From Alphaproteobacteria bacterium (GTDB lineage: Bacteria > Pseudomonadota > Alphaproteobacteria > MPNO01 > UBA830): DNA of 64,000 nucleotides. The DNA is taken from NCBI GenBank assembly GCA_965243135.1, contig OZ251539.1:2689812-2753811 (forward strand), given 5' to 3'. Made by a program: the position numbers and the translations under genes. Below, piece by piece: positions 23,780-62,480 of the stretch (positions are counted from its first letter, which is position 1; the number at the start of each line of letters is the position of its first letter). The notes below the pieces were generated by a model. The model was not told the DNA's origin. It searched no databases and saw nothing but the letters and a program-made list of their open reading frames with translations.

Positions 23780-23794
23780 CAGGAAATCCGGTCG

Positions 23795-25801: not shown

Positions 25802-25844
25802 GGCGGCTCGACGCCGCTGTCATCACGAACAACGGAAACGCGAA

Positions 25845-26888: not shown

Positions 26889-27334
26889 TTCGGCGGCTTT
26901 TTCCGCTCTTGTGCCGGCTCGCCGCGCTTCTGCCCGGCGCGCCGAGGAAAGGAGAAAACTGATCGTATGCGCCAACTCTTTGTCCGTCGCGCAGCCGACT
27001 TCGAGTCGGGGCTGCCCGCCTGCGAGGTTGGCGAGATCCTGCCGGCCCCTGCCGCCCGGCTGCGTTCTCCTTGCGGCGAATTGACTCGCCAGCCCCCCAA
27101 CGGCGGAAACTGCCGGTCGTCTGCGTTGCGCTTCCGACCTCGTAGGGGGTATATGATCGCCAAGATTTTCGTAGACCTTTCCGGGAGCTTCGGTACTGTC
27201 TGGCTCGGGAAAATTTTCTCGCTTCGCGGCAGTTCGTCCATTGGCGATGACGCCTCCTCTGCGGCTACCCGCGAATGCTGTCCGTCTTGGCGGGAATTGA
27301 CGTAATCTTGGCGCATGCGCTTGAGGAAGAGGCC

Positions 27335-30300
27335 ATGGAACCGCCTCCACGGGCAGTTTACGACGACCCTGCACGCCACTGGGACTTCTTGACCCGGCCC
27401 TCGGACGACGACTTCGAAGGTCAGCACTTCGACCGCAAGGAGGCTGGCCAAAGGACGAGCGAAGCTCGGAGACTCGAAAAGCAACTGAAACGACTCCGGG
27501 ATGGTATCGCCGAAACGGTTTCCGCCTTCGCCAACAGCAATGTCGAGGGCGGCCTCCTCGTGATCGGAATCGCTTCCAACGGCGCCGTCGAAGGCGTCAA
27601 CCATCTGACGGAGCGGCAGAAGAACAGCCTCACCGACATTGGGAGCCTGCTCCACTTTCAGGCGGCCGAAGCGAAGCTTCACGTATGCACGGACTCAGCT
27701 GGCCAAAGCAACGCCATCTGTCTGATCTATACCCCCTATGCGGACAGCGGCATCTGCGAAACGCCGGGATCTGCACCGAAAGCGTGGGAGCGACGCGGCC
27801 CCCAGAACGTGCCCGTTACGCTGGAGATGCGAGAGCGGCTCAGAGACAGGAAAAATCTTTCGAATTTCGAAAATGCGTTCTGTTGCCCCTATGACCCAAC
27901 CGATCTCTCGAATGACGTTCTTGCGGAGTTCCGCAAGGTGTTTCTCCCGGAAGCGGTTAAGGACTTCTCGGACGAACGGCTGCTTTATGAGGCGGGGGCG
28001 CTGATCCGCAGGGATGGAGAATACTGGTTTACGAATGCCGGGCTTCTGTTCTTCGGATCGAATCCGCAACGGGTGCTTCCTGCATCGCACGTCCGCTTGT
28101 TGCGATTCGGAGCGATCTCTGGGGATTTCGCTAAGCGCGGGCTGCCTACATTCGACCAGAAGTTTACGGGCCCGGTAACGAAGCAGATCCGCGAAGCGAG
28201 GACGTTCTTCAGAGAATCCGCGTTCTTCAAGCGATATCAAAAGCGTCGGGAGGCAGGCGGCTTCGCCGAGGAACCCGAGTTTCCGCCCACCGTCATCGAC
28301 GAGGCCATAGTGAACGCCGTGGCGCATCGGGACTATCGGACCGCCATACCGATCGAATGCGAAGCCTACGCGGATGCCTTCGTCGTCAAGAACCCAGGCC
28401 GGATGACGCAACGTGACGCCGATCTTCCATCCCGTTTCTCGTTGGCGGATGTCGTGCTCGACTCGATGCCTAGGAATCCCAAGATTTTGGAGTGGTTGAA
28501 GCTGATGCGGGATCCCCGCGGCGCAGCGTACGTACAAGCCATCAGCGAAGGCACGAAGCAGATGGTCACGGCCATGGAAGATCTCGGATTGCCCGCTCCT
28601 TCATTCCGCCTGGCCTCGAACGAGACATTGATCAAGATCGAAAGCAAAGCTGAAGAACGCGAAGCCGCTATCCTGGCCGCGAACGAAGACAAGCCAACGG
28701 AATTCTGCAATCTGTTTCTCCTGAGGTTTCGACAGCAAGGAAATCCGGTCGGGTACGATGCCTTCGGCTCGCGGTATGGAGAGATCGTCAAGACGCTGCG
28801 CGACGCTCTCAAGGGAAACGGATGGCATATCGACAGGGATGGATTCAGCAGGATATTGGCGCATAGAAAAGGCATGGAGCTTGAAGCGCCGGAAGACGTG
28901 AGATCCATTTTGCGTTTCTATCCAGCGTACGAATTCCAGATTCGAGAGTATCATCGGCGCTATTATTTGTGCATCGACTATAAATGCTTGGCTCTCAACG
29001 TAAGGAAGCTCTCCGTTGCGAGACAACGACTCGCCCGAACCGATCTGGAAGGCCGACGTTGCATCGCGGAGAAGCACGGATGGAGGGAAGGCCGTCTGTC
29101 TGAATTCGGCGACGAATTCGCGCAAGTCCGGTTCTTTGATACCGAAACGGAAGAGTCCGTTTCCGTCGATAAAGTTATTCCCAATGTCTCCAATGCGATG
29201 TTGGAAACCATGCTGAAGAAGGAAGGATCCTCGTTCGATTTCTCTGCTGCGCTCCGAAAGCACAGTTTGGTCACGAGGTCGAACGCCGCGAAGGAACGGG
29301 CGGAGAGAACGCTGACTATGGCGAATCATATTGCGGATACGGTGTTTCCATTGCGACATTGCGACCTCGACATAGACGTCGTTTCCGATCCGGTTCGACT
29401 TTCTGAACGAAAAGGATCTTCGAAAGGCGAAATGTTCGTTCGACGCTTGCCGGAGCCGGAGGCGGAGTTTCGGCAACGCGAGCTGTCGCGAGATATCCGG
29501 ACCGGAATCACGAAGTACGGTGCATATGACGATCAACCGCAGCGGATCGAGCTGATTCCCGTTTGCACGAATTCGATGCGAAAGGGAATGGAAAAATTGA
29601 TCGGTCGCTTGGTAGGGGGACGGCATAGATACCGTGGATCCGAACGCACTTTTGCGGCGGAGTTCTCGTATTCGACGATCGTCTCCGTGGATCGCGTCGA
29701 AAATATCCGGGGAGAAATCGAACGTCTGCTGGACCGGCGGCCAAAAGGCCACGCCGACGCACGGTCCCTCTTTCTCGTTTACGCTCCGGAAGAGGGCTAT
29801 TCACGCGATGACCATACGGCGCCATATTTCGCCAACAAGAGACTGTTGCTGGAAAGAGGCGCGCCCTGTCAGATGGTTGATACGCCGACACTTGAGAACG
29901 CCGATTGGAAGGACCTGAATCTGGCCTTGAACATCTGCGCCAAATGCGGCGTTCGACCCTGGGTCTTGCCCGATAGAATCCCGGAAGCGGATTTTTTCGT
30001 GGGACTGTCCTATACGCAATCCGAAGACGGTCGGCGAATCATGGGTTTTTCCAACGTATTCAACAGCTACGGCAGGTGGGAGTTCTATCGCGGAAATGCC
30101 TCGTATTTTGATTTCGAGGATCGAAGCGTTCGGCTTGCCGGTTTGATTGAATCAACGTTAGAAAGACTCGAATCCCGACTGTCTTCGACTCCTCGTGTGG
30201 TGTTCCAATACTCCGCAAGGCTTTCGCGGCTTGACCGGATGGCGATTCTCAGGGCAGCCCGCAAGATTCGTCCGGAAGGAATTTATTCTTTCGTCTGGAT

Positions 30301-30697
30301 TAACTCCCATCACAATATACGATTCTATGACAGTCGTCCAGACACGGACGGAAGTCTTCGCCGGGGCAGCTACGTTGAGGCGGGCGCGAATAAGATATAC
30401 CTGTCGACAACCGGTTACAATCCGTATCGCCGGGCCATGGGAACGCCGAAACCGCTAGAAGTCTCTGCTTTTGTCGACCGACCGGACAGCGACGGCCACC
30501 AACCTGATCTTCGGATATTGGCCTTGCAGGTTTTGAGTCTCACTAAGCTGAATTGGGCTTCCACGGATGCGTTTTGCGGGGAGCCGATCACGCTCAAGTA
30601 CGCCAGAGACATAGCCTATTTGACGGCCGCTTTCCTGCGCCAATCGGAGCCGTTCAACCTTCATCCTTCTCTGGAGACGACGCCATGGTTCATTTAG
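27335..30697 (+). CDS. Fusion protein: Schlafen-like AlbA_2 + HATPase_c_4 (COG2865) N-terminal module, linker/APAZ-like region, then Argonaute MID and catalytically inactive PIWI domains (pAgo)
   Basis: Single 1120-aa ORF; alternative ATG at 27275, preferred ATG at 27335 with GAGGAAGAGG RBS. N-terminal EGQHFDRKE...VSAFANSNVEGGLLVIGI (AlbA_2) and IDEAIVNAVAHRDYRT...VVKNPGRM (HATPase_c_4). MID: PYFANKR...APCQMV...NLALNICAKCGVRPWVL (Y-K-Q-K pocket plus KxGG-PW motif). PIWI: ADFFVGLSYTQ where the first catalytic Asp is replaced; C-terminal ...LKYARDIAYLTAAF...TPWFI tail. Confidence 0.7.
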   Translation: MEPPPRAVYDDPARHWDFLTRPSDDDFEGQHFDRKEAGQRTSEARRLEKQLKRLRDGIAETVSAFANSNVEGGLLVIGIASNGAVEGVNHLTERQKNSLTDIGSLLHFQAAEAKLHVCTDSAGQSNAICLIYTPYADSGICETPGSAPKAWERRGPQNVPVTLEMRERLRDRKNLSNFENAFCCPYDPTDLSNDVLAEFRKVFLPEAVKDFSDERLLYEAGALIRRDGEYWFTNAGLLFFGSNPQRVLPASHVRLLRFGAISGDFAKRGLPTFDQKFTGPVTKQIREARTFFRESAFFKRYQKRREAGGFAEEPEFPPTVIDEAIVNAVAHRDYRTAIPIECEAYADAFVVKNPGRMTQRDADLPSRFSLADVVLDSMPRNPKILEWLKLMRDPRGAAYVQAISEGTKQMVTAMEDLGLPAPSFRLASNETLIKIESKAEEREAAILAANEDKPTEFCNLFLLRFRQQGNPVGYDAFGSRYGEIVKTLRDALKGNGWHIDRDGFSRILAHRKGMELEAPEDVRSILRFYPAYEFQIREYHRRYYLCIDYKCLALNVRKLSVARQRLARTDLEGRRCIAEKHGWREGRLSEFGDEFAQVRFFDTETEESVSVDKVIPNVSNAMLETMLKKEGSSFDFSAALRKHSLVTRSNAAKERAERTLTMANHIADTVFPLRHCDLDIDVVSDPVRLSERKGSSKGEMFVRRLPEPEAEFRQRELSRDIRTGITKYGAYDDQPQRIELIPVCTNSMRKGMEKLIGRLVGGRHRYRGSERTFAAEFSYSTIVSVDRVENIRGEIERLLDRRPKGHADARSLFLVYAPEEGYSRDDHTAPYFANKRLLLERGAPCQMVDTPTLENADWKDLNLALNICAKCGVRPWVLPDRIPEADFFVGLSYTQSEDGRRIMGFSNVFNSYGRWEFYRGNASYFDFEDRSVRLAGLIESTLERLESRLSSTPRVVFQYSARLSRLDRMAILRAARKIRPEGIYSFVWINSHHNIRFYDSRPDTDGSLRRGSYVEAGANKIYLSTTGYNPYRRAMGTPKPLEVSAFVDRPDSDGHQPDLRILALQVLSLTKLNWASTDAFCGEPITLKYARDIAYLTAAFLRQSEPFNLHPSLETTPWFI

Positions 30698-30949
30698 CGA
30701 GTTCGAGGCCCGGATCAAGTCGGTGGTCCGGCTTTCAGACGGCGAATCGAAAATTTCACGCCTCCTGACATCGCGTAAATCCAACTCCGGCGACCGTTTC
30801 CTTCCCGACGCCGCGCTGCGACCTCGCCAGTATTGCGCGGATCCACCTGTTGCGGCGCAGGCGCCCGAACCTTCGGCGACGGAAGCCGCGCGCCGCGTCG
30901 GCGTGAACGCAAGCTTTGCGGCAGGCGCTCCCGGCTTTCCGTGCTGCAG

Positions 30950-31657
30950 CTACGCGCCGCTCCCTATGGCGACCGCGTTCTTGTGAACGTCGTCGTACAT
31001 CAGATGCTGGATTTCGAGCATCTGGCGAACGGTCTTGAGCACGAGCGTGCGCTCGTCCTCCGTGCGAGCGAACTGGTCGAGAAGCTTTCGGCCGACATCG
31101 GAATGCTCTTCGTCCGCACTGTCGTGGATCACCCAGTAGGCGACCTCTTCGTCGCTCAAACCGAACTGTTCCTGGAGATTGCGAGCGATCTTGACGTACA
31201 GTCCGGGTATCGCCGCCTCGCCCGCCAGCATGTGCGCGGCGACGCCTTCCAGGAAGCTTTTCGAGCAGATTTGGGTGAAATAAGCCTGAAACGCCACTAC
31301 GCCGGCGCAATACGGGGGATCGTACATTTGTTCCGGCGTCAGCCCCATGCCCCTCGCGTAATCGAGATAGAGCCGGTGGTGCGAGACTCCGTTTGACATC
31401 AGGCGCCCGGTCGCCTCTTCGAAGGCCACTTCGGCGATCAACTCGCGCCAAGCCGGATCGGGACAGATCACGTAGAGATTGCCGTGATAGTTGTGATTGT
31501 GGAGCGGTATGCCGCCATGCTGCTGACAGATGTAGCGCGACTGCTCCAGATTCCACCTGCCCTCGACCATGCCGGTCCAGAGCGGATGTCCATACATCGG
31601 CAGTTCCCCGTGGATTTCCGAAATCCGATCGAGCACGCCCTGCGTCGTCAATGTCAT
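30950..31657 (-). CDS. TenA / PqqC / heme-oxygenase-like family protein
   Basis: 235 aa from ATG at 31657 (AGGAG RBS). All-alpha composition with conserved His/Glu/Tyr positions typical of the TenA_C fold. Confidence 0.55.
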   Translation of the reverse strand: MTLTTQGVLDRISEIHGELPMYGHPLWTGMVEGRWNLEQSRYICQQHGGIPLHNHNYHGNLYVICPDPAWRELIAEVAFEEATGRLMSNGVSHHRLYLDYARGMGLTPEQMYDPPYCAGVVAFQAYFTQICSKSFLEGVAAHMLAGEAAIPGLYVKIARNLQEQFGLSDEEVAYWVIHDSADEEHSDVGRKLLDQFARTEDERTLVLKTVRQMLEIQHLMYDDVHKNAVAIGSGA

Positions 31658-32401
31658 CGTGCGTCTCCTGGCAGACCGAAAGCGCATTGAACATATCCTT
31701 CGGCCGCAAACCGGTCGAGCGCCCGGCGTGGCAGCGCCGCCTTGCATGGGTTGCAGGCGTCAGGATCGGACGCGGTCCTTGTTCCGACGCCGGAGTCGCG
31801 TCTTCCGCAGAGCATAGTCCGCACGGCTGCGGAGCGGAAACAAATCGCGATCCTGAAGCTCGGCGTGGAAAACTGTCGACGGTCGGCACGGCTGGATCAA
31901 TTGCGCTTTGGTCCCTTGCGTCTCTTCGGGACACCATCCTCCGGCAGACCGGTTCTTGCCGCTTCTCCACCTCGCGAAGCGCACTCTCCGGTGCCAGGCG
32001 AAGCTTCTCGACCTTCGGAAGTCTCCGGAGCGCCGCTGTCGGCGCCCTCCCCGACCGGCGTCGTCTCGGGCGTCGCAGGCTGAATGTGCGGCCGCCATGG
32101 CGGCCGCGAGAAAAAGGCGTCCGGAAGAGCGATTCGCTAAACCCTGTTCACGCTCCGCGAGCGAACGGCCTACGCCGGGTCCTCTGGTTTCCGTCTTTGA
32201 AACGCGCTCGACTTGAACTTCTTGAATCGCAGGTCCATCGCCTCGTCCGAACGAGCTGGCGGCCCGCAAGACGCGGCGGATCTCTCGATGCGAACGCTTT
32301 TTCAGAAAAGACGGAAAACGCGATCTCGTCGCAAGTCAATCGATCACGCGGAAATCGTCGAAAACCATGAAGCCATGCAAAAGTAAACGCCGTTGGGAGG
32401 A

Positions 32402-41103: not shown

Positions 41104-41323
41104 TTCAATGCGCGCCGTTCGAACCCGGAAAGGTTATGTCGCGCGCGGCGCAAGGTTCGGGTGCACCGCACTCAGAGTCGCATGCTGCCGGGCGGACATG
41201 CTTTCGTACTGACTTCAATGCGCGCCGTTCGAACCCGGAAAGGTTATGTCGCGCGCGGCGCAAGGTTCGGGTGCACCGCACTCAGAGTCGCATGCTGCCG
41301 GGCGGACATGCTTTCGTACTGAC
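41104..41323 (+). repeat. Perfect tandem direct repeat, 110 bp x 2
   Basis: 41104-41213 is identical to 41214-41323. Each unit carries GGAAAGG followed by ATG and a 26-codon ORF ending in TGA at the unit boundary. Confidence 0.9.
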
Positions 41324-41535: not shown

Positions 41536-42545
41536 CGCCCGCTTCAGCGGCGCTTGTCGAAAAACGCGAAAAGTTCCTCGGAGGTCCGACTGACGGCGAC
41601 GTGGGCCGTCGCTTCCTGAAACCGTTCGGGGTCGACGATGCCGTCGAGCATGGATTTCAAGCGTTCTCCCGCTTCGTCGCCGAACCGTTCGGCCGCAAGC
41701 CTGGCCATGAGTTCGCGGTTCAAAGCCATGGACGCCTCGGCCCTTGCGTCGGACGCCTCGGCTCTTGCGTCGAACGCCTCGGCCCTTTCCACGGCCGCGT
41801 CGGCTCTTGCGTCGGCCGCAAGCGCCCTTTCCACGGCCGCATCGTAATGTTGAGCGAATCCGGTCATCGATCCTTCAAGTGCAGTCTCTGGCAAGAAGTT
41901 CCACGGCCCCAAAATCGCCCGCTTCAGCGGCGCTTGTCGAAAAACGCGAAAAGTTCATCGGAGGTCAGACTGTCGGCGACATGCGCCGTCGCTTCCTGAA
42001 ATCGTTCGGGGTCGACGATGCCGTCGAGCATGGATTTCAAGCGTTCTCCCGCTTCGGCGCCGAACCTTTCGGCCGCAAGCTTGGCCACGAGTTCGCGGCT
42101 CAAAGCCACGGCCGCGTCGGCCCTCGCGTCGGACGCAAGCGCCCTTTCCACGGCCGCATCGTAATGTTGAGCGAATCCGGTCATCGATCCTTCAAGTGCA
42201 GTCTCTGGCAAGAAGTTCCACGGCCCCAAAATCGCCCGCTTCAGCGGCGCTTGTCGAAAAACGCGAAAAGTTCATCGGAGGTCAGACTGTCGGCGACATG
42301 CGCCGTCGCTTCCTGAAATCGTTCGGGGTCGACGATGCCGTCGAGCACGGATTTCAAGCGTTCTCCCGCTTCGGTGCCGAACCTTTCGGCCGCTAGCTTG
42401 GCCACGAGTTCGCGGTTCAAAGCCATGGACGCCTCGGCCCTCGCGTCGGACGCCTCGGCCCTCGCGTCGGACGCAAGTGCCCTTTCCACGGCCGCATCGT
42501 AATGTTGAGCGAATCCGGTCATCAGTATCGATCCTTCAAGTGCAG
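41536..42545. repeat. Three tandem ~310-380 bp repeat units, each encoding (on the minus strand) a DUF4351-like C-terminal segment, with an internal 21-bp microrepeat (DARAEAS) of variable copy number
   Basis: Units start near 41536, 41917 and 42224 (CCGCCCGCTTCAGCGGCGCTTGTCGAAAAACGCGAAAAGTTC...). The third unit is the 3' end of the ankyrin-Rpn gene. Confidence 0.85.
41544..42229 (-). other. Two orphan, out-of-frame copies of the C-terminal DUF4351-like segment (silent cassettes or duplication remnants)
   Basis: ORFs 41924-42229 and 41544-41912 translate to ...ETALEGSMTGFAQHYDAAVERALA...ERLKSMLDGIVDPERFQEATAHVA..ELFAFFDKRR, closely matching the C-terminus of the upstream gene but lacking ATG/RBS. 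Confidence 0.6.
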
Positions 42546-43740
42546 TCTCAGGGAACCATTCTGACCCGAGCGCCGTCATTGTCAACAGAAGATGGCGCAA
42601 CGGTTCGTCCACCGGCAGAAGCCTGTCAAGCTCCTCGCAGGCGCGCAACGTGTCGGCGGGGTCGCCTTGATGCAGCCGGAAATAAGCCGCCGCGGGATTG
42701 TCTTGGTACGCGGAATAGTCCATCCGTTGGACGTCGTGCACCACATACCGCGCCGGCGTTCTGTAGGGCTCGAGGAAGGCATGCTTCGGCGGAGCTATCA
42801 GCCTTTCCGCGTCGTCGGCTGCATTCCAGGCGTCGGCTCCCGTGTGGACGACGACCGGAACGGTGAACGGAACCCGGTCGTCGGCATCCAGGAGATCCTT
42901 GTGGTTCCGTCGGATGGTTCTTGTGAGTTCGATCCGGTAGGACGCCATCCGTTCCGCCATAGCGCGGTCGACAGCGGATTGGAACTCGACGATGAAGGAA
43001 AGCGGCTCTGAGTCCTGCGGTTCGAGGACCAAGATCATATCGCTGCGGAGGGCACGGCTGAGCGAGTGGGACACGAGTTCCCCGTCGATGCGTCGAATGG
43101 CCGCGTCTTCCGGCACCAGATCGGCCGGCAGGACAGTCCGCAGCAGGCCCCGCGCCATTACGGGATACCCGAAAACGAACCGGGCTATCGCGTCGTGCGG
43201 ATAACGTCCCGGCCTGCCCAGCATCCGCAGCGGGGTCCGGTCTCGCGGGTCCTTGAGAGCAGGGTTCCCGCCGCATCCGACCAAAGCGACGAACGCGGCG
43301 TAGTTCTCGTTGCGGGCGGCGTAGTGAAGCGGCGAGAACCCCCGATTGTCCGCGGCGTCGAGACCGGCGCCCGCCGCGGCCAGAGCCTCGATGGCGGCCG
43401 CATTCCCGTCGCGGGCAGCGTAGTGAAGCGCCGTTCGCCCGTTCCGGTCCCCGGCGTCGAGGCCGGCGCCCGCCGCGGCCAGAGCCTCGATGGCGGCCGC
43501 GTTCCCGTAGCGAGCGGCGTAGTGAAGCGCCGTTCGCCCGTTCCGGTCCCCGGCGTCGAGGCCGGCGCCCGCCGCGGCCAAGGAAGCGATGTGCGCCGCG
43601 CCCTTTTTCGGGACCCTGGCGGCGTAATGGAGAAGGGTCCGGCCCTTTCGGTCTTTCGGGTTGTTGTGCCGACGGAACAATTCGACGATGAATTCTGGGG
43701 ACCCCGTCCTGACGGCGGCGGCGAGCTGTCGTTTCTTCAT
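42241..43740 (-). CDS. Ankyrin-repeat protein fused to an Rpn-family (YhgA-like, PD-(D/E)XK) recombination-promoting nuclease with C-terminal DUF4351
   Basis: ATG at 43740 with GGGA RBS. Four ankyrin repeats (GRTALHYAAR.GNAAAIEALAAAGAGLDA); nuclease core ...FIVEFQSAVDRAMAERMASY...; C-terminal DUF4351-like helix bundle. Confidence 0.6.
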   Translation of the reverse strand: MKKRQLAAAVRTGSPEFIVELFRRHNNPKDRKGRTLLHYAARVPKKGAAHIASLAAAGAGLDAGDRNGRTALHYAARYGNAAAIEALAAAGAGLDAGDRNGRTALHYAARDGNAAAIEALAAAGAGLDAADNRGFSPLHYAARNENYAAFVALVGCGGNPALKDPRDRTPLRMLGRPGRYPHDAIARFVFGYPVMARGLLRTVLPADLVPEDAAIRRIDGELVSHSLSRALRSDMILVLEPQDSEPLSFIVEFQSAVDRAMAERMASYRIELTRTIRRNHKDLLDADDRVPFTVPVVVHTGADAWNAADDAERLIAPPKHAFLEPYRTPARYVVHDVQRMDYSAYQDNPAAAYFRLHQGDPADTLRACEELDRLLPVDEPLRHLLLTMTALGSEWFPETALEGSILMTGFAQHYDAAVERALASDARAEASDARAEASMALNRELVAKLAAERFGTEAGERLKSVLDGIVDPERFQEATAHVADSLTSDELFAFFDKRR

Positions 43741-49102: not shown

Positions 49103-50386
49103 TCATGCGCCGCCGGGCGCGCCGTCGCCGGTCTTCATCGGCTTCATCCGGATCTGCGTGATCCGGTTGCGCTGGCGCCTGACGATTTCCAGCCGGAAGC
49201 CGTGAAAATGGAAGATTTGCCCGGCCTGGGGGATGATCCGCGCTTCGTGGATCACCAGGCCGGCGATGGTCGCGGCCTCCTGATCCGGGAGGTTCCAGCC
49301 GAAGCGGCGGTTGAGGTCGCGCACCGTGACGCCGCCCGAAACCAGGCAGCTTCCGTCGCGCTGGGGGCGGACGCCCACCGGCGCGACGTCGTGCTCGTCG
49401 GAGATCTCGCCGACGATTTCCTCCAGGATGTCTTCGAGCGTCACCACGCCCATGAGGGCCCCGTATTCGTCGACCACCAGCGCGAAATGCTCGCGCCGCT
49501 GCCGGAACGCCTGCAGCTGGTCCAGCAGGTTCGTCGAATCGGGAACGAACCATGGCGGCGTCAGGATGCTCTCGACTTCGATGTCGCCGGCTTCGCCCGA
49601 ACGGGCGTGGAGCTCCCGCAGCAGCGCCTTGGCGTGCAGGACGCCGGCTATGTTGTCGGGAGAGTCCCGCCACAGCGGGATCCTGGTGAACTGACTCTCG
49701 AGCGCCCGTTCGACGATCGCGCCGGCCGGCTGCGACGCGTCGATCATGAAGACGTCGCGGCGGTGTTGCATGATCATGCTGACGTCGACGTCCCGCAGGT
49801 CCAGAACGCTGTGGAGCATCGCCGTGACGCCGCTCGCCGGATGCAGTTCGATCGCGCCCCTGAGCTCCTCCAGCGTCGCGTTCATGTCGCGGCCCTCCGC
49901 GCGCCGGACCCCCAGCAGGAATTCGCAGGCGCGAAGCGCCCACTGTATCGCCGACATCACGGGGGTCAGCACCCGGACCAGCATCCGGAAGGTCGGGGCG
50001 ACGAGCAACGCGACCCTGTCGGGGTTGCGGAACGCGTAGGTCTTGGGCAGCAGTTCGCCGAATATCAGCACGAGCAGCGTCATTGACAGGGTCGCGTAGA
50101 CGACGCCGGTTTCTCCGGCCACGCCGATAAGGAGGCTGGTCGCGAGCGCCGAGGCGAGGATGTTGACGAGGTTGTTGCCGAGAAGAATGGCGCCGATCAT
50201 TCGGTCCTGTTCTTCCCGCAGCCGGTTCACCAGCCGCGCCCTCCGGTCGCCTTTCACCTCGAGTTGATGCATGCGCGGCCGCGACGCCGCGGTCAGCGCA
50301 GTCTCGGATCCCGAAAAGAAGGCGGAGAGAACGAGCAGCACCAGGATGCCGGCGAGGGTCGCGAGCAGGGGGTAATCCGTCAACGC
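49103..50386 (-). CDS. HlyC/CorC family transporter (DUF21-CBS pair-CorC_HlyC)
   Basis: TTG at 50386 with GGGAAA RBS. DUF21 TMS region (ALTAASRPRM), two CBS domains, and a C-terminal CorC domain. Confidence 0.8.
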   Translation of the reverse strand, partial: ALTDYPLLATLAGILVLLVLSAFFSGSETALTAASRPRMHQLEVKGDRRARLVNRLREEQDRMIGAILLGNNLVNILASALATSLLIGVAGETGVVYATLSMTLLVLIFGELLPKTYAFRNPDRVALLVAPTFRMLVRVLTPVMSAIQWALRACEFLLGVRRAEGRDMNATLEELRGAIELHPASGVTAMLHSVLDLRDVDVSMIMQHRRDVFMIDASQPAGAIVERALESQFTRIPLWRDSPDNIAGVLHAKALLRELHARSGEAGDIEVESILTPPWFVPDSTNLLDQLQAFRQRREHFALVVDEYGALMGVVTLEDILEEIVGEISDEHDVAPVGVRPQRDGSCLVSGGVTVRDLNRRFGWNLPDQEAATIAGLVIHEARIIPQAGQIFHFHGFRLEIVRRQRNRITQIRMKPMKTGDGAPGGA

Positions 50387-51510
50387 AGGTTTCCCGCGTT
50401 CGGGAGGGCGGCCTCGATCGCGCGCCGGACGGCCTCCGGGTCGGCCTGGGGGGCGACGAAGGCGTCGCCTACGGCACGCGCCAGGACGAAGGCGATCCGC
50501 CCGTCCCGGACTTTCTTGTCCCGGCTCATGCGCCGGATGAGCGCATCGGGGTCGCAGCGGCGGCCCGCCGGCAGGGCGACGGGCAATCCGACCGTCTCGA
50601 AATGCCGGCGGACGCGGGCCACTTCGGCGTACGCGCACAGGCCGAGCGCCGCCGAGAGCTCGAAAGCCATGACCATGCCGACGGCGACCGCCTCGCCGTG
50701 GAGCATCCGGTACCCGGATTCCGCTTCGATGGCGTGGCCGAAGGTATGGCCGAAGTTCAGGAGCGTTCGCGCGCCCGCTTCGCGTTCGTCCCTTCCGACG
50801 ACGTCCGCCTTCACGGCGCAGCTGGCGCGGACGGCATGGCGGCGCGCCGGGCCGTTCTCGGCGACGACCTGGGCGCCGTTGCGTTCGAGCCAGGCGAAGA
50901 ATCCCGGATCGCGGATCAGGCCGTATTTGACCACTTCGGCGTAGCCGGCGAGGAGGTGCGGTCGCGGCAGCGTGTCGAGCATCGCCGTGTCCGCGAGGAC
51001 GAGCCTCGGTTGGTGGAACGCGCCCAGGAGATTCTTGCCGTGGCGCGTATTCACGCCGGTCTTGCCGCCTACCGAACTGTCGACCTGCGACAGCAGGGTC
51101 GTTGGAATCTGGACGAAGTTCAGGCCGCGCAGGATCATGCTGGCGGCGAAACCGGCGATGTCGCCGACGACGCCGCCGCCGAGGGCGATCAGGACCGAGG
51201 AGCGTTCCGGCGCGGAATCGAGCGCCGCGGTCGCGACGCGTTCCACCGTTTCCAGGCTTTTGGTCCGTTCTCCCGGAGGCAGGACTATGGAGGCCGGCCG
51301 GACTCCCGCTTCGGACAACGCCTTCCGGACGCTTTCGAGATGCAGTCCGGCGACCGTTTCGTCGGTGACGATCCAGCACGGGCGCGATCCGGCGAGGTCC
51401 CTGACGCGGGCGGCGCCGCTGCCGCCGGGCGCGGCCACGCCGTCGCCGATGACGATTTCGTAGGACCGTTTCCCGAGTTCGACCCGGAGACTCTCTTCCT
51501 TCCGCTTCAT
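50380..51510 (-). CDS. aroB: 3-dehydroquinate synthase
   Basis: ATG at 51510 (MKRKEESLRVE); motifs GGGVVGDIAGFAA, VDSSVGGKTGVN, HTFGHAIE. Confidence 0.9.
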   Translation of the reverse strand: MKRKEESLRVELGKRSYEIVIGDGVAAPGGSGAARVRDLAGSRPCWIVTDETVAGLHLESVRKALSEAGVRPASIVLPPGERTKSLETVERVATAALDSAPERSSVLIALGGGVVGDIAGFAASMILRGLNFVQIPTTLLSQVDSSVGGKTGVNTRHGKNLLGAFHQPRLVLADTAMLDTLPRPHLLAGYAEVVKYGLIRDPGFFAWLERNGAQVVAENGPARRHAVRASCAVKADVVGRDEREAGARTLLNFGHTFGHAIEAESGYRMLHGEAVAVGMVMAFELSAALGLCAYAEVARVRRHFETVGLPVALPAGRRCDPDALIRRMSRDKKVRDGRIAFVLARAVGDAFVAPQADPEAVRRAIEAALPNAGNLR

Positions 51511-52058
51511 GCCGGCTGCGGTCCTTCGAAACAGCGCTGCAGCGCGCGCAGCACGGCGCGGGCGGCGGCGTCGGCCGATCGGTCGCCGGAGGCGACCGTC
51601 AGATCCGCCTCGGCATAGAACGGGTAGCGTTCCGCGATCAGGCGTTCCATGACTTGGCGCCGGTCCCCCATGTTCAGCAGCGGCCGGTCGCTGCGTCGCG
51701 AAACGCGTTCGAGGAGGACTTCGAGATCGGCCTTCAGCCACACGGAAACGCCGTTCAGGCGGACGTTGCGCCGGGTCTCCGCGTCCGCGAACGCGCCGCC
51801 GCCGGTCGCGATCACGGCGTTCCGCCGCTTCATCAGCCGGGCGATCACCCGCCGCTCGCCGTCGCGAAACGCCGGTTCGCCGTATTTCGCGAAGATGTCC
51901 TCGATCGAGCAATTGGCCGCCGCTTCTATCTCCCTGTCGGCATCGATGAATTCGCGGTCGAGCAGGGCCGCCAGCCGCTGTCCGACGGTCGTCTTTCCCG
52001 CTCCCATCAGACCGACCAGAACGATGGGCTTTTCAGCATACTGCAGGGCGACTGTCAT
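51507..52058 (-). CDS. aroK: Shikimate kinase
   Basis: P-loop GLMGAGKTTVG; 183 aa; ATGA overlap with aroB. Confidence 0.9.
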   Translation of the reverse strand: MTVALQYAEKPIVLVGLMGAGKTTVGQRLAALLDREFIDADREIEAAANCSIEDIFAKYGEPAFRDGERRVIARLMKRRNAVIATGGGAFADAETRRNVRLNGVSVWLKADLEVLLERVSRRSDRPLLNMGDRRQVMERLIAERYPFYAEADLTVASGDRSADAAARAVLRALQRCFEGPQPA

Positions 52059-52503
52059 TGGAAGATTCGCTTAAGCCCAAGGCGTTCTCGCCGTCGGAAT
52101 TTCCGGGAGGCGGCCGCCTTGCGCGGGGCCGGCCACCGGGGTTCGCCCGGTCGCGCTTCCACCTCCGCAGCCGGATCTCGGGCCACGCGCCCCGGGACGA
52201 CCCGCGCACGGAAGGAAAAAGCGTTGTCCTCGGGCGGATCCTCCACCTTCAGCCGGCGCGCGTCAACGGGAAAATAGCGCTGCCGCAGCTGGAAGTCCGG
52301 CATATTTCGGAAAGATCCCTTCCGAGCGCGGCCGGCCAAAACGGCTCGCCGTCGCGAACGACGATCGGCAACATTGCCGCCGCCGCCATCTTCGCGCCGC
52401 CGCGGACGAACTTCCCGTACGACGCCGACGTGCAGGAAGCGCGGGATCGTCTCCCGGTCGACGCTCGACTGGAACTCCAGCGGCGGAAGCGCTTCGCCCT
52501 GGC

Positions 52504-53141
52504 CGTCTTCCGCGCGCAGGCGGACGCGCCCTGGAAGGGATGCGCGACCAGATGGCGGACGCCCCGTCTTCCGCGCGCAGGCGGACGCGCCGCTGGCCGA
52601 CAAGCGCACTTTTCCGGCGATGGACCGTCTTCCGCGCGCAGGCGGACGTGCCGTCTAAAACGTGTTGAGAGAAAATTCCCTCAACCCGTCTTCCGCGCGC
52701 AGGCGGACGTGCCCCCGGCATCCGATCCGCCCGGTGGGCCGGACCGCCGTCTTCCGCGCGCAGGCGGACGTGCCCCCGATCGGCGGCCGCGCATGGCATG
52801 TGATCACCCGTCTTCCGCGCGCAGGCGGACGTGCCCTGTTCGCGGTCGAGGCCATCGCCCAGCACGAGCCGTCTTCCGCGCGCAGGCGGACGTGCCTGAA
52901 TCCCATACTTTTTGCAAGATTGTACGCAACCGTCTTCCGCGCGCAGGCGGACGCGCCGGCGCCTCGCGCAATGTCCGCGTGGGACACGCGCCGTCTTCCG
53001 CGCGCAGGCGGACGTGCCTGAATCCCATACTTTTTGCAAGATTGTACGCAACCGTCTTCCGCGCGCAGGCGGACGCGCCAGCCCCGGTCCCGTCGGCATT
53101 GCGCGGATCATCCCGTCTTCCGCGCGCAGGCGGACGCGCCA
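52504..53141 (+). CRISPR. CRISPR array: 11 repeats, 10 spacers, 61-nt period (28-29-nt repeat + 32-33-nt spacer), type I-E-like repeat
   Basis: Repeat CCGTCTTCCGCGCGCAGGCGGACGYGCC starts (GTCTTCC core) at 52506, 52567, 52628, 52689, 52750, 52811, 52872, 52933, 52994, 53055 and 53116. Spacers are unique except that spacer 7 equals spacer 9. The repeat has the I-E-like palindrome TCCGCGCGCAGGCGGA. Confidence 0.85.
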
Positions 53142-53589
53142 GACCATGTCGGCGCGGCTCTGCCGCAGGTCGTTGTCGACGAACCGCGGCGGGGGATCGC
53201 GGCAGGGAAGTCCGGTTCTCCGCCGAAGTCCGCCCGAAGGAAGCCGTGCGCCAGGTCGGCCACGGACCGTGGGTTGTCGAAAAGCGTTTGCATGGCGTCG
53301 TCGCAGATGTCGCGAACCAGACCGGCTCCCGTCCGGCGAGCCTCGCGGCGGCTTCTTTCTTCATGCGTAAAGCGAAGGCAGCGCGGACGCGCCCCAAAAT
53401 CGCCATAATCTGCGACGATGGTGCGGCCGTCGTCAAGCGCGGCGGACCGCGCGAATTGGGAGCGTCGGATGAAAACGTTGCACATTGCCGTCTTGGCGGG
53501 CGCCTTGCTGGTTCTGGGAGGAGGAGCTGCGTTGCTTGCCGTTTGGGACATCCCCGCCCCATCCGCCGAGGTCGAAAGAATCATTCCGA

Positions 53590-55332
53590 ATGACCGCTTT
53601 CCTCGCTGATCGCCGGCCGCGGATGATCGCCGGCCTGCTGGCCGCGGCGATTTCCTTCGGAGCTGCGGCGCAGCCCGTCGAACTTCGGCGGCCGACTCCC
53701 GACGAGGCCCGTCCCGCGCCGCCGACGCCTCCGCCGGTCGAATCGTCCGGCGAGGAAGCCGGAGCTTCCCGGCCCGCGGACGAGATCGTTTTCGATACGC
53801 TGGACCCGATCGATCCCGATACCTTCGGACTGATCGGCGCGAATCAGGACGGTTTCGGCGTCGACGTCTGGCAGGGAGCGGACTGGCAAACCGTCAGCGG
53901 GCTGATGTCGCAAATCCCGGCGCTCACGACATCGGCCACGATGCGGGCGCTCGCCTCCCGGCTGCTCCTGTCCCGAGCTTTCGTGCCCGCGGGCAAGCCG
54001 GCGAACGCAAGTTTCGTCGGGCTGCGCGTCGAACGGCTTCTGGACATGGCCATGATCGAGGAGGCGCTCGCCCTGTTGAAGGCGGTTCCGGTCCAGCGGC
54101 GCGATGCGACGTTCTCGAAGGTCGAAGTCGAGACGCTCTTCTTCGACAACAGGAATGCGGAGGCATGCGCGCGGGTCGAGGAGGTCGCCGGAAGATTCGC
54201 CGACGTGTACTGGAATCAGGCGCAGGCCTTCTGCGTCGCTCTCGGAGGCGATCAGGCGCGCACCGCGCTCATCGCCGAACTGCTCCGCGAACGGGAGGAA
54301 GAAATAGAGCCGGCGTTCTTCACCGCGCTGGAATCGCTCGCCGGGTTGGAGGTCTCCGAGGTCGAGTCGCTCGACGCGCCCGGCGGACTGCTTCTCTCCA
54401 TGATGCGCGCCGCCGGCCTGAAGCTGCCCGGGCCGCTGGCGAAGAGCGCCGATCCGGCGATTCTCCGTTGGGTCGCGAGGTCGCCGAACGCCGATCTCGA
54501 GGTTCGCCTCGCGGCGGCCGAAAAAGCGCTGGGCGCACATGTTCTCGCGCCCGCCGACGTAACGCGGGCGTATCGGGGCATACGATTTACCGACGAGGAA
54601 CTGGCCAATCCGGTCTCGCGAGCCGAAGCGGACTGGGGACCGCGAGGCCGGGCGCTTCTTATGCGTGCGGCGTCAGCGCAGAGTTCTCCGCTCGCCAAGG
54701 CCGAACTGTTGAGGCGCGCATGGCAGATCGGGCGCGAGCGAGGCGGATACGGCGTGATGGCACGGATGGGCGCTTCGGAGGTTTCGGGCATAACGCCGTC
54801 ATCGGAACTGACGTGGTTCGCGGAGGACGCGGCTCGCGCCTTGTTCGGCGCGGGCCGCATCGCCGAGGCAATGGCCTGGTACGGCGCCGTGGCGGGACCG
54901 AGCGCAGCCCTGGACGAGGCGCGGAACGCGGAGGCCGGCCTGTGGCCGCTCGCGGTGCTGGCCGACAGCGAGACGCCCTTCGATCCCGACCGGTTGACGC
55001 AGTGGTACGCCGACCTGCGGCAATCGGCGCCCGACGAAGCCCGCGGCAGGGCTCTGACCTTGTTCGGACTGCTGGAGGCCGCCGGCCGGAACGTTCCGTG
55101 GCGGACGCTGCTGGACGCGCCGACGGTCGGAAGCGGGACGGATCGGGCATGGGCGCGCAGCCTCGCGGCCGCGGCGGAGGAGGGCCGGATCGGCGAGACC
55201 GTTCTGCTCTCGGCCGTCTTGGCCGGCGCCGGCGCGGGCCCGCCGGAGCTTGCGACCGCGCTCCGACGCGTCGGGCTCGAGGAGGAAGGACGGCGCCTGG
55301 CACTGGAAATCGCCGTCGCGGCCGGGTTGTGA
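53590..55332 (+). CDS. Hypothetical secreted protein (Ala-rich, alpha-helical, TPR-like), conserved neighbour of xerD
   Basis: ATG at 53590 gives a signal-peptide-like N-terminus (MTAFLADRRPRMIAGLLAAAISFGAAAQP); alternative TTG at 53485. 580 aa. Confidence 0.55.
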   Translation: MTAFLADRRPRMIAGLLAAAISFGAAAQPVELRRPTPDEARPAPPTPPPVESSGEEAGASRPADEIVFDTLDPIDPDTFGLIGANQDGFGVDVWQGADWQTVSGLMSQIPALTTSATMRALASRLLLSRAFVPAGKPANASFVGLRVERLLDMAMIEEALALLKAVPVQRRDATFSKVEVETLFFDNRNAEACARVEEVAGRFADVYWNQAQAFCVALGGDQARTALIAELLREREEEIEPAFFTALESLAGLEVSEVESLDAPGGLLLSMMRAAGLKLPGPLAKSADPAILRWVARSPNADLEVRLAAAEKALGAHVLAPADVTRAYRGIRFTDEELANPVSRAEADWGPRGRALLMRAASAQSSPLAKAELLRRAWQIGRERGGYGVMARMGASEVSGITPSSELTWFAEDAARALFGAGRIAEAMAWYGAVAGPSAALDEARNAEAGLWPLAVLADSETPFDPDRLTQWYADLRQSAPDEARGRALTLFGLLEAAGRNVPWRTLLDAPTVGSGTDRAWARSLAAAAEEGRIGETVLLSAVLAGAGAGPPELATALRRVGLEEEGRRLALEIAVAAGL

Positions 55333-56246
55333 CGGCGAGCGGCGGGCAGTCCGCAAGGCTGCTGGAGGTCTTTCTGGAAATGATGACGGCGGAGCGCGGA
55401 GCCGCGGCCAACACCTGCGCCGCCTATCGAGGCGATATCGAACAATATCTGGAGCATCTGCGAGGATCGGGCGTCGACGCGCTGACGGCCGACACCTCCC
55501 ACGTGCGCTCGGCGATCGACGGTTTCGCCGGATACGCCGCGCGCACGCAGGCGCGCAAGCTTTCCGCGCTGCGCCGGTTTCACCGGTTCCTGGTCGTCGA
55601 GGGCTACCGGGACGACGATCCGACTTCGACGGTGGACGGTCCGCGACGCGGGCTGTCCCTGCCCAAGGCGCTGAGTTTCGAGGAGGTGGAGGGGCTGCTC
55701 GCGGCGGCGCGCGCGGTCGAGGGCTGGCGCGGCGCGCGTCTGGTAGCGCTGCTGGAGATCCTGTACGCGACGGGGCTGCGGGTTTCGGAACTCGTGGGGC
55801 TTCGGCGCGGGTCGCTGTCGCGCGCCGGACGGATCGCGACAGTGCGGGGCAAGGGCGGAAAGGAACGCATGGTTCCTCTGGGCGGGCCCGCGCGCGACGC
55901 CGTCGAGGCGTGGTTGCCGCTGCGCGAGGAGCAGCTCGGCGAAGCGGCGAAGGGGAACAAGTGGCTTTTTCCCTCGCGTTCCGCCGCCGGCCATTTGACG
56001 CGCGACCGTTTCGCCAAGCTGTTGCAGGAGGCGGCCGTTTCCGCGGGCATTGACGCGTCGCGCGTTTCGCCGCATGTTCTGCGCCATTCCTTCGCGACCC
56101 ATCTGCTCGCGAACGGAGCCGACCTCCGAAGCGTGCAACAAATGCTCGGTCATGCCGATATCTCCACGACCCAGATCTACACCCATGTTCTCGACGAACG
56201 GCTCCGGGCGCTGGTCCGCGACGTCCATCCGCTCTCGGGCATCTGA
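55329..56246 (+). CDS. xerD: Site-specific tyrosine recombinase XerD
   Basis: GTG at 55329 overlapping the upstream stop; 305 aa; catalytic R..HxxR..Y (VLRHSFATHLL...TQIYTHV). Confidence 0.9.
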   Translation: MTASGGQSARLLEVFLEMMTAERGAAANTCAAYRGDIEQYLEHLRGSGVDALTADTSHVRSAIDGFAGYAARTQARKLSALRRFHRFLVVEGYRDDDPTSTVDGPRRGLSLPKALSFEEVEGLLAAARAVEGWRGARLVALLEILYATGLRVSELVGLRRGSLSRAGRIATVRGKGGKERMVPLGGPARDAVEAWLPLREEQLGEAAKGNKWLFPSRSAAGHLTRDRFAKLLQEAAVSAGIDASRVSPHVLRHSFATHLLANGADLRSVQQMLGHADISTTQIYTHVLDERLRALVRDVHPLSGI

Positions 56247-56274: not shown

Positions 56275-57240
56275 TTGGCAGAAACTCACGCCTTTCTTGA
56301 ATTCGAGAAGCCGATCGCGGAGCTCGAGGGCAAGATTCAGGAGTTGCGGCACCTCAGCGACGACAGCGGGATTCGGATCGCCGACGAGGTGGAGCGGTTG
56401 CAGAACCGGGTCGATCGACTGCTGGTCCAGACTTACGCTAGGCTAACTCCGTGGCAGAAGGTTCAGGTGGCCCGGCATCCCGGGCGTCCGCACTGTCTCG
56501 ATTACATCGGCGCGCTGATCGGCGAGTTCACGCCGCTGGCGGGCGATCGCGCCTACGGCGAGGATCAGGCGGTCGTCGGCGGCCTCGGGCGATTTCACGG
56601 CCGGTCGGTGGTCGTTCTCGGCCACGAGAAGGGCGCCGACACCGATTCGCGGATACGGCACAATTTCGGGATGGCGCGGCCGGAGGGGTATCGCAAGGCG
56701 CAGCGCCTGATGCGGCTCGCGGATCGTTTCGGGCTTCCGGTGATCACCTTCGTCGACACGGCCGGCGCCTATCCGGGCGTCGGCGCCGAGGAGCGCGGCC
56801 AGGCGGAGGCGATCGCGCGTTCGATCGAGACCGGGCTCGATTTAAGGGTGCCGGTGGTCGGCGCGGTCATCGGCGAGGGCGGTTCGGGGGGGGCCATCGC
56901 CATTGCGGTGGCCAACCGCGTGCTGATGCTCGAGCATGCAGTCTATTCGGTGATTTCTCCCGAGGGATGCGCGTCGATCCTGTGGCGCGACGCGAGTCAC
57001 GCGACCGAGGCGGCGAACGCGCTCAAGCTCACCGCGCAGGACATGCTGGAGCTGGGCGTCATCGACGCGATCATTCCCGAGCCGGTCGGCGCGGCGCATC
57101 GCGACGGCAAGGCGGCGATCGAAGCGACGGGCCGCGCGATTTCGGACAGCCTAGATGCGTTGCGCGGCCTCGAGGGCGATGCATTGCGGCGGCAGCGGCG
57201 CGAGAAATTCATGCAAGTAGGGGAGCGTCCGGACAATTGA
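56275..57240 (+). CDS. accA: Acetyl-CoA carboxylase carboxyltransferase subunit alpha
   Basis: [14 protein letters not shown]...; TTG at 56275; 321 aa. Confidence 0.9.
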
Positions 57241-60511: not shown

Positions 60512-61896
60512 ATGTCCACGTCCCAAGACTTGGAAACCCTTCTGCAACATCGCGCCGACGTTCTCCGTCAGTTGTCCGAAGATCTTCGCCAAGGATCCCT
60601 CACCGCCCAATACCGCAAGCAAACCCGGTTGCCATTGCGCAGAGGGACCGGGGCATGGGCCGTACCTTCAACTGACCCGAAAGGTGAAGGGCAAGACGCG
60701 ATGCAGGTCCGCTGCCGCGGAAGTCGTGGGCAGGAGTACAAGCAGTTTCGCGAGCTGGTCCAGCAATTGGTAAGCGCATGCGATGCGCGATTGGACCGTT
60801 CTCGCGGCGACGAAGTAAAAAAAGCCTTCGAGGCCGTCGTCGCGGCGGAAGCGTCGTCCGAGATAAACCGCCTGGTCGGGGACGGTGTGACGGACGACAT
60901 GGAGGCTGTCGAAACCGCGGCGAAGCGAGCGGAGATCGGCGCCCGTGCCGTCGCCAAGCGGTTCAACCATTCCGACCACGTTGGACATCGCATGCGCGTC
61001 GTGTGGAGGAGAAGCCCACGGGCCGGCGCCCGAAAACCTTCACAACGGCGTTGGACGAAGTTCGACCGGACATACTACCGCTGCAACGCTTGCAACACCG
61101 GGATCTGCCCACGGGACCGGGCGATGGAAAAAACCTCCCCCGCCGCCACGCGCATGGTCGGGTTCGCAGCTTCGCAATGGCCAGTAGGAAGGAGTTGGCG
61201 GGGCTGAAGGTCGACCCCAAGATGGTCGAACGCGCCGCCGAGGCTCTCGGCACCGAAGAGGATGAACGCCAGAGGGTCGAGGTCGAACCGCCGTCCGGGC
61301 CGACCATGTATGTCGGCATGGACGGCACCGGGGTGCCGGCCAGGCAAGCAACCGGACGGTTCTTCCAAGACTCGCGAGGCCAAACTCGTCACCGTGTGGA
61401 CGGCCGAAAAACAAAACGAAGGGACACCCGAACAGGGTTCGGCTCCGTCGGCATCGCCGCTACCACCGACAAGGAACTGTCGCCTTTCGCTCAACGAGTC
61501 GAGCGCGAAGCGCGCCGTCGCGGCTTCCACGACGCCGAGCGACGCGTGGTCCTGGGGGGCGCTCTGGGAACATCGCCGACGAACTGTTCCCCGACGCCAC
61601 CCTTGTTCCATGCGAAACAGCACCTGTGGAGCAGGGCGAAGGAGATCTACGGTGACGGAGATCTTGCGGAAGCATGGGCAAAAAAGCAGTGCGACGCCCT
61701 CGAAGACGGTCAGGTCGACAAGGTCATCGCGGCTCTCCGCAAGCACGGCGCCGCAGGCTACCTGGAACGGAACCGCGCGCGCATGCAGTACGCAAAGTTC
61801 CGTGCGCAGGGTTTGTCCTCCGGCGTCGTCGAGGCCGGTTGCAAGAGAACGGTCGGCAACCGTCTGAAACGGGGGCGGTGGACCGTTCGCGGCGCG
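60512..61896 (+). mobile_element. ISKra4-like transposase gene remnant (frameshifted; 3' end runs into duplicated wzt sequence)
   Basis: Two consecutive ORFs in different frames (60512-61207, 60778-62025). The C-terminal region NRARMQYAKFRAQGLSSGVVEAGCKRTVGNRLKRGRW resembles the conserved C-terminal motif of ISKra4-family transposases. No terminal inverted repeats identified. Confidence 0.4.
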
Positions 61897-62480
61897 AACA
61901 GCCGCTCGCTCAAGAACAAACTCCCGCGCCGGAGCACGGGCGGGCAGCCGGAGCGCCGCGCGGCGGCTTTCGCCGCACGCGCTCGAAGACACGAAGTTCG
62001 CGCTTGCGCACGGCGACCGCGCTGATCGGCGCGAACGGCGCGAGCAAGACGACGACGCCGCTCGCGGGAATCTACCGGCCGGCTCCGGGGCACACGGACC
62101 GCCGGGGAAGGGCGGCCGCGCCGTTTACCGCTCGGCCCTTACGGGAAACGTCACGGCGTGCGGAATCTTCCTCGGGACCATGCCTCCGGAAATCCGCGAA
62201 CGAACTGCCGAGGAGTTCATCGAGCCCGGCGACTGCGAGGCCGGCGCACCGGTCCGCGACCGGCGTTCGCGGCGCGTGCCTGCGCCCGAGATTCCGCCGA
62301 TGGACGAGCGGGGTCGGCGACGCGGCCTTCGTCAAGAAGGCGGAGCGGCGGCTGGAGGAGGGGCGGGCGGGGCTCCTCGCGCCGGCTTCGCGCAACGCCG
62401 CCTCGCTTGAGCGGACCCGCGCAACGGGTATACTCTTGGCGGGCGGACGGGCGCGGGCGTTCGGACCTGAGGCGCCGCGG
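61897..62480 (+). pseudogene. Degraded partial duplicate of the wzt ABC ATPase gene
   Basis: 61897-61960 approximately matches 59591-59650, and 62160-62480 approximately matches 59900-60240, with substitutions and indels (GANSRSLKNKLPRRSTGG vs GADSRSLKNNLLRRSTGG; ...ASLERTRATGILLAGGRARAFGP vs ...ALLERVCTRGILLEAGRVQAFGP). Confidence 0.6.

Follow-up and report, generated by a model that had tools for sequence, protein, structure and literature searches.

How did an array with CRISPR geometry come to lie between aroK and an xerD operon in a stretch of DNA with no cas genes? The question is raised by a 64,000-nt stretch of contig OZ251539.1 (positions 2,689,812 to 2,753,811; assembly GCA_965243135.1) from an Alphaproteobacteria bacterium, hereafter the window, in which eleven copies of one repeat lie next to the shikimate kinase gene aroK. 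An earlier reading of the bare sequence, the original prediction, took this array for an orphan of type I-E that had been inserted into the aroK/xerD neighbourhood. We consider it probable that the locus is instead a natural de novo ("neo") CRISPR array, produced when spacers were integrated ectopically at a 28-bp stretch within a YhgA/Rpn-like pseudogene. The features on which the argument rests are the following.

52503-53140, minus strand: CRISPR-like array of 11 repeats of 28 nt and 10 spacers of 33 nt, with a 61-nt period (638 nt).
52074-53376, minus strand: YhgA/Rpn-like (PF04754, PD-(D/E)XK) pseudogene with the embedded array, delimited by homology breakpoints, reconstruction and homologue alignment.
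53141-53376, minus strand: right flank, the 5' (N-terminal) part of the pseudogene (236 nt), which encodes ...DDAMQTLFDNPRSVADLAHGFLRADFGGEPDF...FVDNDLRQSRADMV and runs straight into the repeat.
52074-52502, minus strand: left flank, the continuation of the pseudogene after the repeat (429 nt), with QGEALPPLEFQSSVDRETIPRF (the EFQS motif of PD-(D/E)XK nucleases).
52386-52411, minus strand: repeat-like stretch in the left flank, CCATCTTCGCGCCGCCGCGGACGAAC, which encodes EVRPRRREDG.

Repeat mapping in the window recovered the predicted eleven copies at a start-to-start interval of exactly 61 nt throughout, and placed the array where it had been reported, although shifted by one nucleotide from the predicted 52504-53141. 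The period had been read as the 29+32 geometry of type I-E or I-F arrays; the type I-E geometry stands, but the units are better described as 28+33, with the repeat being CCGTCTTCCGCGCGCAGGCGGACG[C/T]GCC. All 10 spacers are 33 nt long and nine are unique, spacer 7 being the same as spacer 9. The sole polymorphism among the 11 repeats is the C/T at position 25, which runs C C T T T T T C T C C along the array. An inverted repeat of 5 bp, TCCGC-N6-GCGGA, lies within the 28-mer, whose predicted folding is no better than that of shuffled sequence (z about 0) and is symmetric. The spacers span 36% to 82% GC, against about 66% for the genome, and the two AT-rich spacers (36-39% GC) suggest a foreign source. 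No extra repeat copy with up to six mismatches was detected elsewhere in the window. An assembly artefact was considered and rejected, because two independent assemblies, L001 from ENA and L012 from Logan, show the same repeat at the same site.

The identity of the repeat becomes apparent on the minus strand, where it reads GGCGCGTCCGCCTGCGCGCGGAAGACGG and its codons, (T)GG CGC GTC CGC CTG CGC GCG GAA GAC GG, spell W-R-V-R-L-R-A-E-D-G. When the array is collapsed to one repeat, a single minus-strand frame leads from the right flank through the repeat into the left flank, ...FDNPRSVADLAHGFLRADFGGEPDF...FVDNDLRQSRADMV-WRVRLRAEDG-QGEALPPLEFQSSVDRETIPRF..., with the junctions reading ...SRADMV-WRVRLRAEDG-QGEALPPLEFQSSVDRE... 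across the repeat. The only direct family matches of the collapsed sequence were Transposase_31/YhgA-like in Pfam (E=0.0015; 18.6 bits, against a cut-off of 21 bits) and RpnA in NCBIfam. Among 5.8 billion proteins, the intact homologues P0116 and P0117 (332 and 334 aa), which carry precomputed PF04754 assignments, matched with 58-60% identity (E=2e-50 and 1e-49). The segment corresponding to the repeat, MVWRVRLRAEDG, is ordinary protein sequence in P0116, P0118 and P0119, and P0117 has MVWRIRLRMEDS in its place. Even a homologue of about 35% identity reads MVWRVRLGQR here and retains DMVWR.RL, and the residues M, V, R, R and L of this segment are invariant in the alignment. At the DNA level, the exact 28-mer occurs once and in frame in the related loci L006 (an intact gene), L008, L009, L010 and L011, and with four mismatches in L007. 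The repeat is almost certainly native coding sequence.

The gene that contains it belongs to the YhgA/Rpn family (PF04754 Transposase_31; RpnA-E of E. coli) and retains the family's order of motifs, namely a D-x-hydrophobic strand, EFQS and LP-x-V-x-Y-x-G-x-x-W. Unlike the family at large, the window copy is dead: its start codon is CTG instead of ATG, at least four frameshifting or other deletions interrupt it, its 3' end is truncated, and no intact open reading frame (ORF) of about 300-330 aa is left. Two 5-nt deletions, one of 11-12 nt and one of 6 nt are common to the window, L001, L012 and L002, as is the loss of about 400 nt of the 3' end. The window copy is a pseudogene. We know of no connection between the YhgA/Rpn family and CRISPR arrays, and the one seen here appears accidental.

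This anatomy also bears on the supposed leader. The segment 52059-52503 had been offered in that role; it is, rather, the downstream remainder of the pseudogene and encodes LEFQSSVDRE... and LPIVVRDGEPFW on the minus strand, with MLPIVVRDGEPFWPAALG and PDFQLRQRYFPVDARRLKVEDPPEDN encoded in the left flank beyond the frameshifts. Both flanks of the array are GC-rich remnants of rpn-like coding sequence, neither of them resembling an AT-rich non-coding leader, and no promoter-like site was found in either. The gene's own AT-rich upstream region, present in L009 and L006, is missing from the window. The stretch at 52386-52411 was examined as a degenerate trailer repeat and rejected, as it is coding sequence (EVRPRRREDG) and marks the end of a deletion in L002 described below.

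Related loci, recovered by exact-protein look-ups in other assemblies, preserve the site in several states. In L004 and L005, in which the 580-aa protein encoded on the far side of the array is 84% and 80% identical to that of the window, only about 250-300 nt separate aroK from the 580-aa gene. Homology of both loci to the window stops at 52073 and restarts at 53377; 52074-53376 is therefore an insertion of about 1.3 kb relative to both. L009, on a 248-kb contig with the order accA, xerD, 580-aa gene, rpn-like gene, aroK, aroB and CorC, carries a near-intact rpn-like gene at the same aroK-adjacent site, with one 28-mer and no array. Thus, the inserted element was not an array, as had been supposed, but a YhgA/Rpn-like gene, absent from L004 and L005 and near-intact in L009.

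In the closest relatives the array itself varies. L001 has the same flanks and the same repeat, with three repeats and two spacers, both differing from those of the window; L012 has two repeats and one spacer, which is unique; L002 has a single repeat, left after the loss of about 120 nt with its junction inside short GAAGA(C/T)GG direct repeats, one of them in the repeat and the other at about 52386-52411. DNA alignment against the intact genes shows identical duplication boundaries in the window, L001 and L012. Across these three strains there are 13 spacers, 12 of them distinct, each 33 bp long and each accompanied by an exact 28-bp target duplication, and no two strains share a spacer. By aroK identity the loci branch as ((window, L001), L012, L002), L009, L004, L005, an order implying that the rpn-like gene came in first and decayed later, the array growing within the decayed copy. 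The aroK DNA of the window and L001 is 100% identical (552 nt), so that the complete spacer turnover between the two argues for recent integration and loss at the site, and fits a live adaptation module better than an inert relic. In the pseudogene flank beside aroK (about 440 nt), the window and L001 differ at roughly a dozen positions and indels, which suggests local recombination, faster decay of the pseudogene or a chimeric metagenome scaffold.

Such arrays were confined to this site in the material searched. None was found in the intact close rpn-like copies, nor at the homologous site of 37 distant PF04754 genes from GTDB genomes (0/37), among which the long match in L044 represents two separate gene fragments and the other periodic matches are ordinary tandem repeats. 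Using the spurious ORF across the array as a query for further array-bearing strains recovered nothing besides the source contig and L012. Array formation appears to be peculiar to the pseudogene beside aroK in this lineage, in which insertions would cost little or nothing.

In CRISPR adaptation, Cas1-Cas2 cuts both ends of a repeat and ligates a prespacer between them, and gap repair duplicates the repeat. The type I-E integration geometry of E. coli is a 28-bp repeat with a 33-bp spacer, that of type I-F is 28+32, and other types have longer repeats. The fixed lengths found here, 33 bp in 13 of 13 inserts and 28 bp in the accompanying duplications, equal the I-E ruler. We infer that the inserts were made by the Cas1-Cas2 of a type I-E-like system acting in trans. 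In the proposed scenario, an ancestor of this Rhodospirillales-like lineage would have received a YhgA/Rpn-like nuclease gene between aroK and the exported-protein/xerD operon, and the gene would have decayed to a pseudogene in the clade of the window. A Cas1-Cas2 with the type I-E ruler, presumably encoded elsewhere in the 6.1-Mb chromosome, would then have mistaken the 28-bp stretch for a CRISPR repeat, with the TCCGC-N6-GCGGA inverted repeat plausibly making it repeat-like to the integrase. Each integration would have made staggered cuts at both ends of the 28 bp, ligated a 33-bp prespacer and left gap repair to duplicate the 28 bp, and repeated integrations would have given 1, 2 or 10 spacers in different strains. 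What is seen directly is that the repeat is single-copy coding DNA in intact genes, that each duplication measures 28 bp and each insert 33 bp, and that occupancy and spacer content vary by strain.

A laboratory precedent exists. Work in E. coli is reported to have shown that off-target integration by Cas1-Cas2 gives rise to new arrays (Nivala, Shipman & Church 2018, Nat Microbiol 3:310). Those neo-CRISPR arrays are likewise reported to have a repeat that is duplicated ordinary genomic DNA, to follow the 28+33 I-E ruler, to lie away from cas genes and to occupy a site that accepts further spacers. The present case differs in being natural, whereas the E. coli arrays arose under Cas1-Cas2 overexpression; in lying inside a protein-coding (pseudo)gene; in an integrase that we infer; and in that related strains between them retain the unoccupied site and arrays of 1, 2 and 10 spacers. 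Off-target spacer acquisition is also one of the three origins reportedly proposed for isolated arrays by Shmakov et al. 2020. Our locus shares with isolated or orphan arrays the lack of neighbouring cas genes. However, most isolated arrays are reported to have a repeat and leader related to those of a cas-adjacent array (Shmakov et al. 2020), whereas the repeat here matches none of the known families and is flanked on both sides by host-gene coding sequence.

Several results weigh against ectopic integration by Cas1-Cas2. About 52 genes were called in the window by codon statistics and about 50 of them were scanned with Pfam, with NCBIfam and PADLOC scans added for ORFs that had no Pfam match; none of the about 50 predicted genes, over 52 kb upstream and 11 kb downstream of the array, matched a Cas family. 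This agrees with the original prediction, and leaves 64 kb of a 6.1-Mb chromosome in which no cas1, cas2 or other cas gene was seen. The spacers likewise gave no hint of their targets. The proposed comparison with phages and plasmids was carried out for the nine unique window spacers (blastn, E<=1) and returned nothing beyond chance; central 24-mers of eight window spacers had no match in IMG/VR, nor did that of one window spacer in the metagenomes of the Joint Genome Institute (JGI). No protospacer of any window spacer was thus found in the phage, plasmid, IMG/VR and JGI collections, in all of which the lineage is poorly represented, and the 12 distinct spacers of the window, L001 and L012 had none in the window or the fetched loci. 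As no protospacer was found, no protospacer adjacent motif is available to support a type assignment, and no nucleotide is conserved at the spacer ends. The order of the repeat variants is also unlike simple leader-proximal addition, as are the duplicate spacers 7 and 9, which have a T-variant on one side and a C-variant on the other, and neither polar model fits unless additional recombination or mutation is assumed. The pattern could be explained by non-polar integration in the absence of a leader, or by arrays recombining with each other. Finally, the resemblance of the 28-mer to type I-E repeats, considered below, is too weak to explain why this site was chosen.

With regard to the duplicate itself, spacers 7 and 9 (within 52869-53084) are identical AT-rich 33-mers with another spacer between them. 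Each has a T-variant repeat on its left and a C-variant on its right, an arrangement explained neither by a single duplication nor by polar acquisition.

The original prediction had seen an I-E-like core in the repeat, which did not hold up on comparison. In register with four canonical I-E repeats, the 28-mer is identical at 13-14 of 28 positions on the plus strand and at 12 of 28 on the minus strand; equally good identity is reached at 791 to 2751 further sites in the window, and its identity to the I-F repeat is lower than the window average. Rfam scanned over the window at the gathering threshold gave no CRISPR-DR family, and the Rfam CRISPR direct-repeat models gave no match to either strand of the array at E<=10. 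The exact 22-nt repeat core had no match in 185,579 species-representative genomes (one per species) or in the 241 million records of the JGI metagenomes, so that no cas-adjacent array with this repeat came to light there; these collections do not include the source lineage. Because the core is absent from them and no Rfam CRISPR-DR model matches, the repeat is not a circulating CRISPR repeat, and the I-E-like core is at most a weak lead and not a family assignment.

Compared with a canonical type I-E array such as CRISPR1 of E. coli K-12, the locus is similar in its 61-nt period, readable as 28+33 or 29+32, its central inverted repeat, its uniform spacer length and its strain-specific spacers. 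It differs in having no adjacent cas operon and no AT-rich leader, and in lacking the I-E 3' handle (ATAAACCG/ATGAACCG); the I-E family consensus, of the GTGTTCCCCGCG...CGGGGAT(A/G)AACCG type, is not matched by the 28-mer. No I-E-like repeat was found in any fetched locus. A sequence of L003, GGGGATAAACCG, is identical to the 3' end of the I-E repeat of E. coli and was considered as a trace of an array; it was rejected, since it belongs to the conserved AT-rich upstream region of the rpn-like gene and corresponds to GAGGATAAACCG in L006 and L009.

Could the array, having arisen by the same ectopic route, by now be a working immune locus, transcribed and processed by a resident Cas6e-like enzyme, with its CRISPR RNAs used in trans? 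Growth to 10 spacers, the complete spacer turnover between strains with identical aroK, nearly identical repeats (1 of 28 positions variable), the two AT-rich spacers (36-39% GC) in a 66% GC genome and the twofold occurrence of one spacer would all fit. However, neither flank has a promoter-like site and the gene's AT-rich upstream region, as in L009, is missing; the stem has only 5 bp and folds no better than shuffled sequence; the sequences that flank it are unlike I-E handles; and no protospacer match was found in the collections searched. The near-identity of the repeats would be expected in any case, since each integration copies an existing repeat, and thus needs no selection. We regard a functional immune locus as unlikely, although it has a better chance than an origin without Cas1-Cas2; if real, it would show a CRISPR array at its birth, with an entirely new repeat. 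Given the lack of a leader and of a promoter, and the non-canonical handle sequences, our guess is that the array is for the most part a side product of adaptation and is active in interference little or not at all.

A mechanism that does not involve Cas proteins may also be considered: an unrecognised integrase with a 28-bp stagger, an Rpn-family nuclease acting on the gene that encodes it, or replication slippage and recombination. In its favour, the window showed no cas gene, the interrupted gene is of a family whose annotation is putative transposase or recombination-promoting nuclease, and the mosaic of repeat variants is unlike polar addition by Cas1-Cas2. Against this stand the 13 insertions, 12 of them distinct and unrelated, each of 33 bp with an exact 28-bp duplication, which is the signature of a ruler-type spacer integrase; to our knowledge, no other enzyme yields fixed 33-bp inserts with an exact 28-bp target duplication. 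Unique inserts cannot arise by slippage, intact rpn-like copies carry no inserts, and the Rpn-type host gene could not act on itself, as it is a pseudogene in every array-bearing strain. We think it very unlikely that the array-bearing genomes are without any Cas1-Cas2 and owe their duplications to an unrecognised integrase or an Rpn-linked process, a finding that would, if true, amount to a new way of building CRISPR-like arrays.

Weakest of all, and hardly credible, is a canonical type I-E array parted from its cas operon (split or relic) through horizontal transfer or cas deletion, which would account for the 28+33 geometry, the partly palindromic repeat, the unique spacers and the absence of cas genes from the window, but is contradicted by a repeat that is in-frame PF04754 coding sequence and single-copy in intact homologues including the same-locus L009, by flanks that are the rest of the gene and neither leader nor cas remnants, and by a repeat core that is absent from all other genomes scanned and has no Rfam repeat family. 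Of the orphan type I-E designation, the CRISPR-like organisation, the I-E geometry and the lack of cas genes in the window survive, whereas the origin and the anatomy do not, as the array grew inside a gene.

The origin of new CRISPR arrays, and of isolated arrays, is usually inferred indirectly. The natural evidence for off-target integration has been described as circumstantial, and its laboratory demonstration reportedly relied on overexpressed Cas1-Cas2 (Nivala, Shipman & Church 2018). With ectopic spacer integration as the probable origin of the present locus, a whole natural series is preserved, from an intact gene with a single 28-bp site to 1, 2 and 10 spacers in close relatives, which makes the process directly testable with respect to the integrase, the features of the site, polarity and the function of any transcript. 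The locus is a new and unusually clear natural case of a phenomenon already known from the laboratory. It indicates that spacer integration can land in coding sequence, and it is a caution for annotation, as a repeat period and a partial palindrome are insufficient for calling a type I-E orphan.

Gene calls and family scans confirmed the aroK-aroB/xerD neighbourhood as described.

49103-50383, minus strand: CorC/CNNM.
50380-51510, minus strand: aroB.
51507-52058, minus strand: aroK (shikimate kinase), which bounds the insertion site on the left.
53590-55332, plus strand: conserved 580-aa protein with a signal-peptide-like N-terminus, the right boundary gene, upstream of xerD.
55329-56246, plus strand: xerD-like gene.
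56275-57240, plus strand: accA.

The 580-aa neighbour was examined as a novel Cas effector and rejected, given its signal-peptide-like N-terminus and lack of family matches; its gene is kept beside xerD in relatives both with and without the array. In L003 (1-2253) and L009 (7636-9980), about 2.2 kb of extra DNA lies between the 580-aa and rpn-like genes; its reading frames are transposase-like and decayed, and the window has no such segment. The aroK/xerD intergenic site therefore seems to have received mobile DNA repeatedly.

A second YhgA/Rpn-like gene is located at 41544-43740 on the minus strand of the window, with N-terminal ankyrin repeats fused to it (42241-43740). It is followed by two small stand-alone ORFs, 41924-42184 (86 aa) and 41544-41867 (107 aa), which are 86% and 79% identical to the C-terminal ~93 residues of the ankyrin-Rpn protein, start from an internal Met and correspond to a 317-nt tandem repeat at 41789-42453. 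These ORFs (41544-42184) presumably resemble the small C-terminal Rpn proteins of E. coli. In L008 (5202-5942), a 1x and error-prone long-read contig, tandem partial copies of the 3' end likewise lie downstream of a full rpn-like copy, as at 41.5-42.5 kb of the window. Just downstream of the C-terminal cassettes of the window, at 41104-41323, there is a perfect tandem duplication of 110 nt (two copies, 100% identity).

Additionally, the window encodes a 1140-aa long prokaryotic Argonaute (27275-30697, plus strand; full-length match to the PADLOC pAgo model, 1584 bits) with an N-terminal Schlafen/AlbA_2 domain. The gene sits in a lower-GC island (about 23000-31700, 55-63% GC), together with nearby ORFs of no assigned family at 23795-24394 and 24836-25801, the latter with a weak LmuA-like match; it is probably a defence island. 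In a stretch of low coding score at 61003-62025 on the plus strand lies a fragment of an ISKra4-family transposase (NCBIfam E=2.6e-24, under the curated cut-off).
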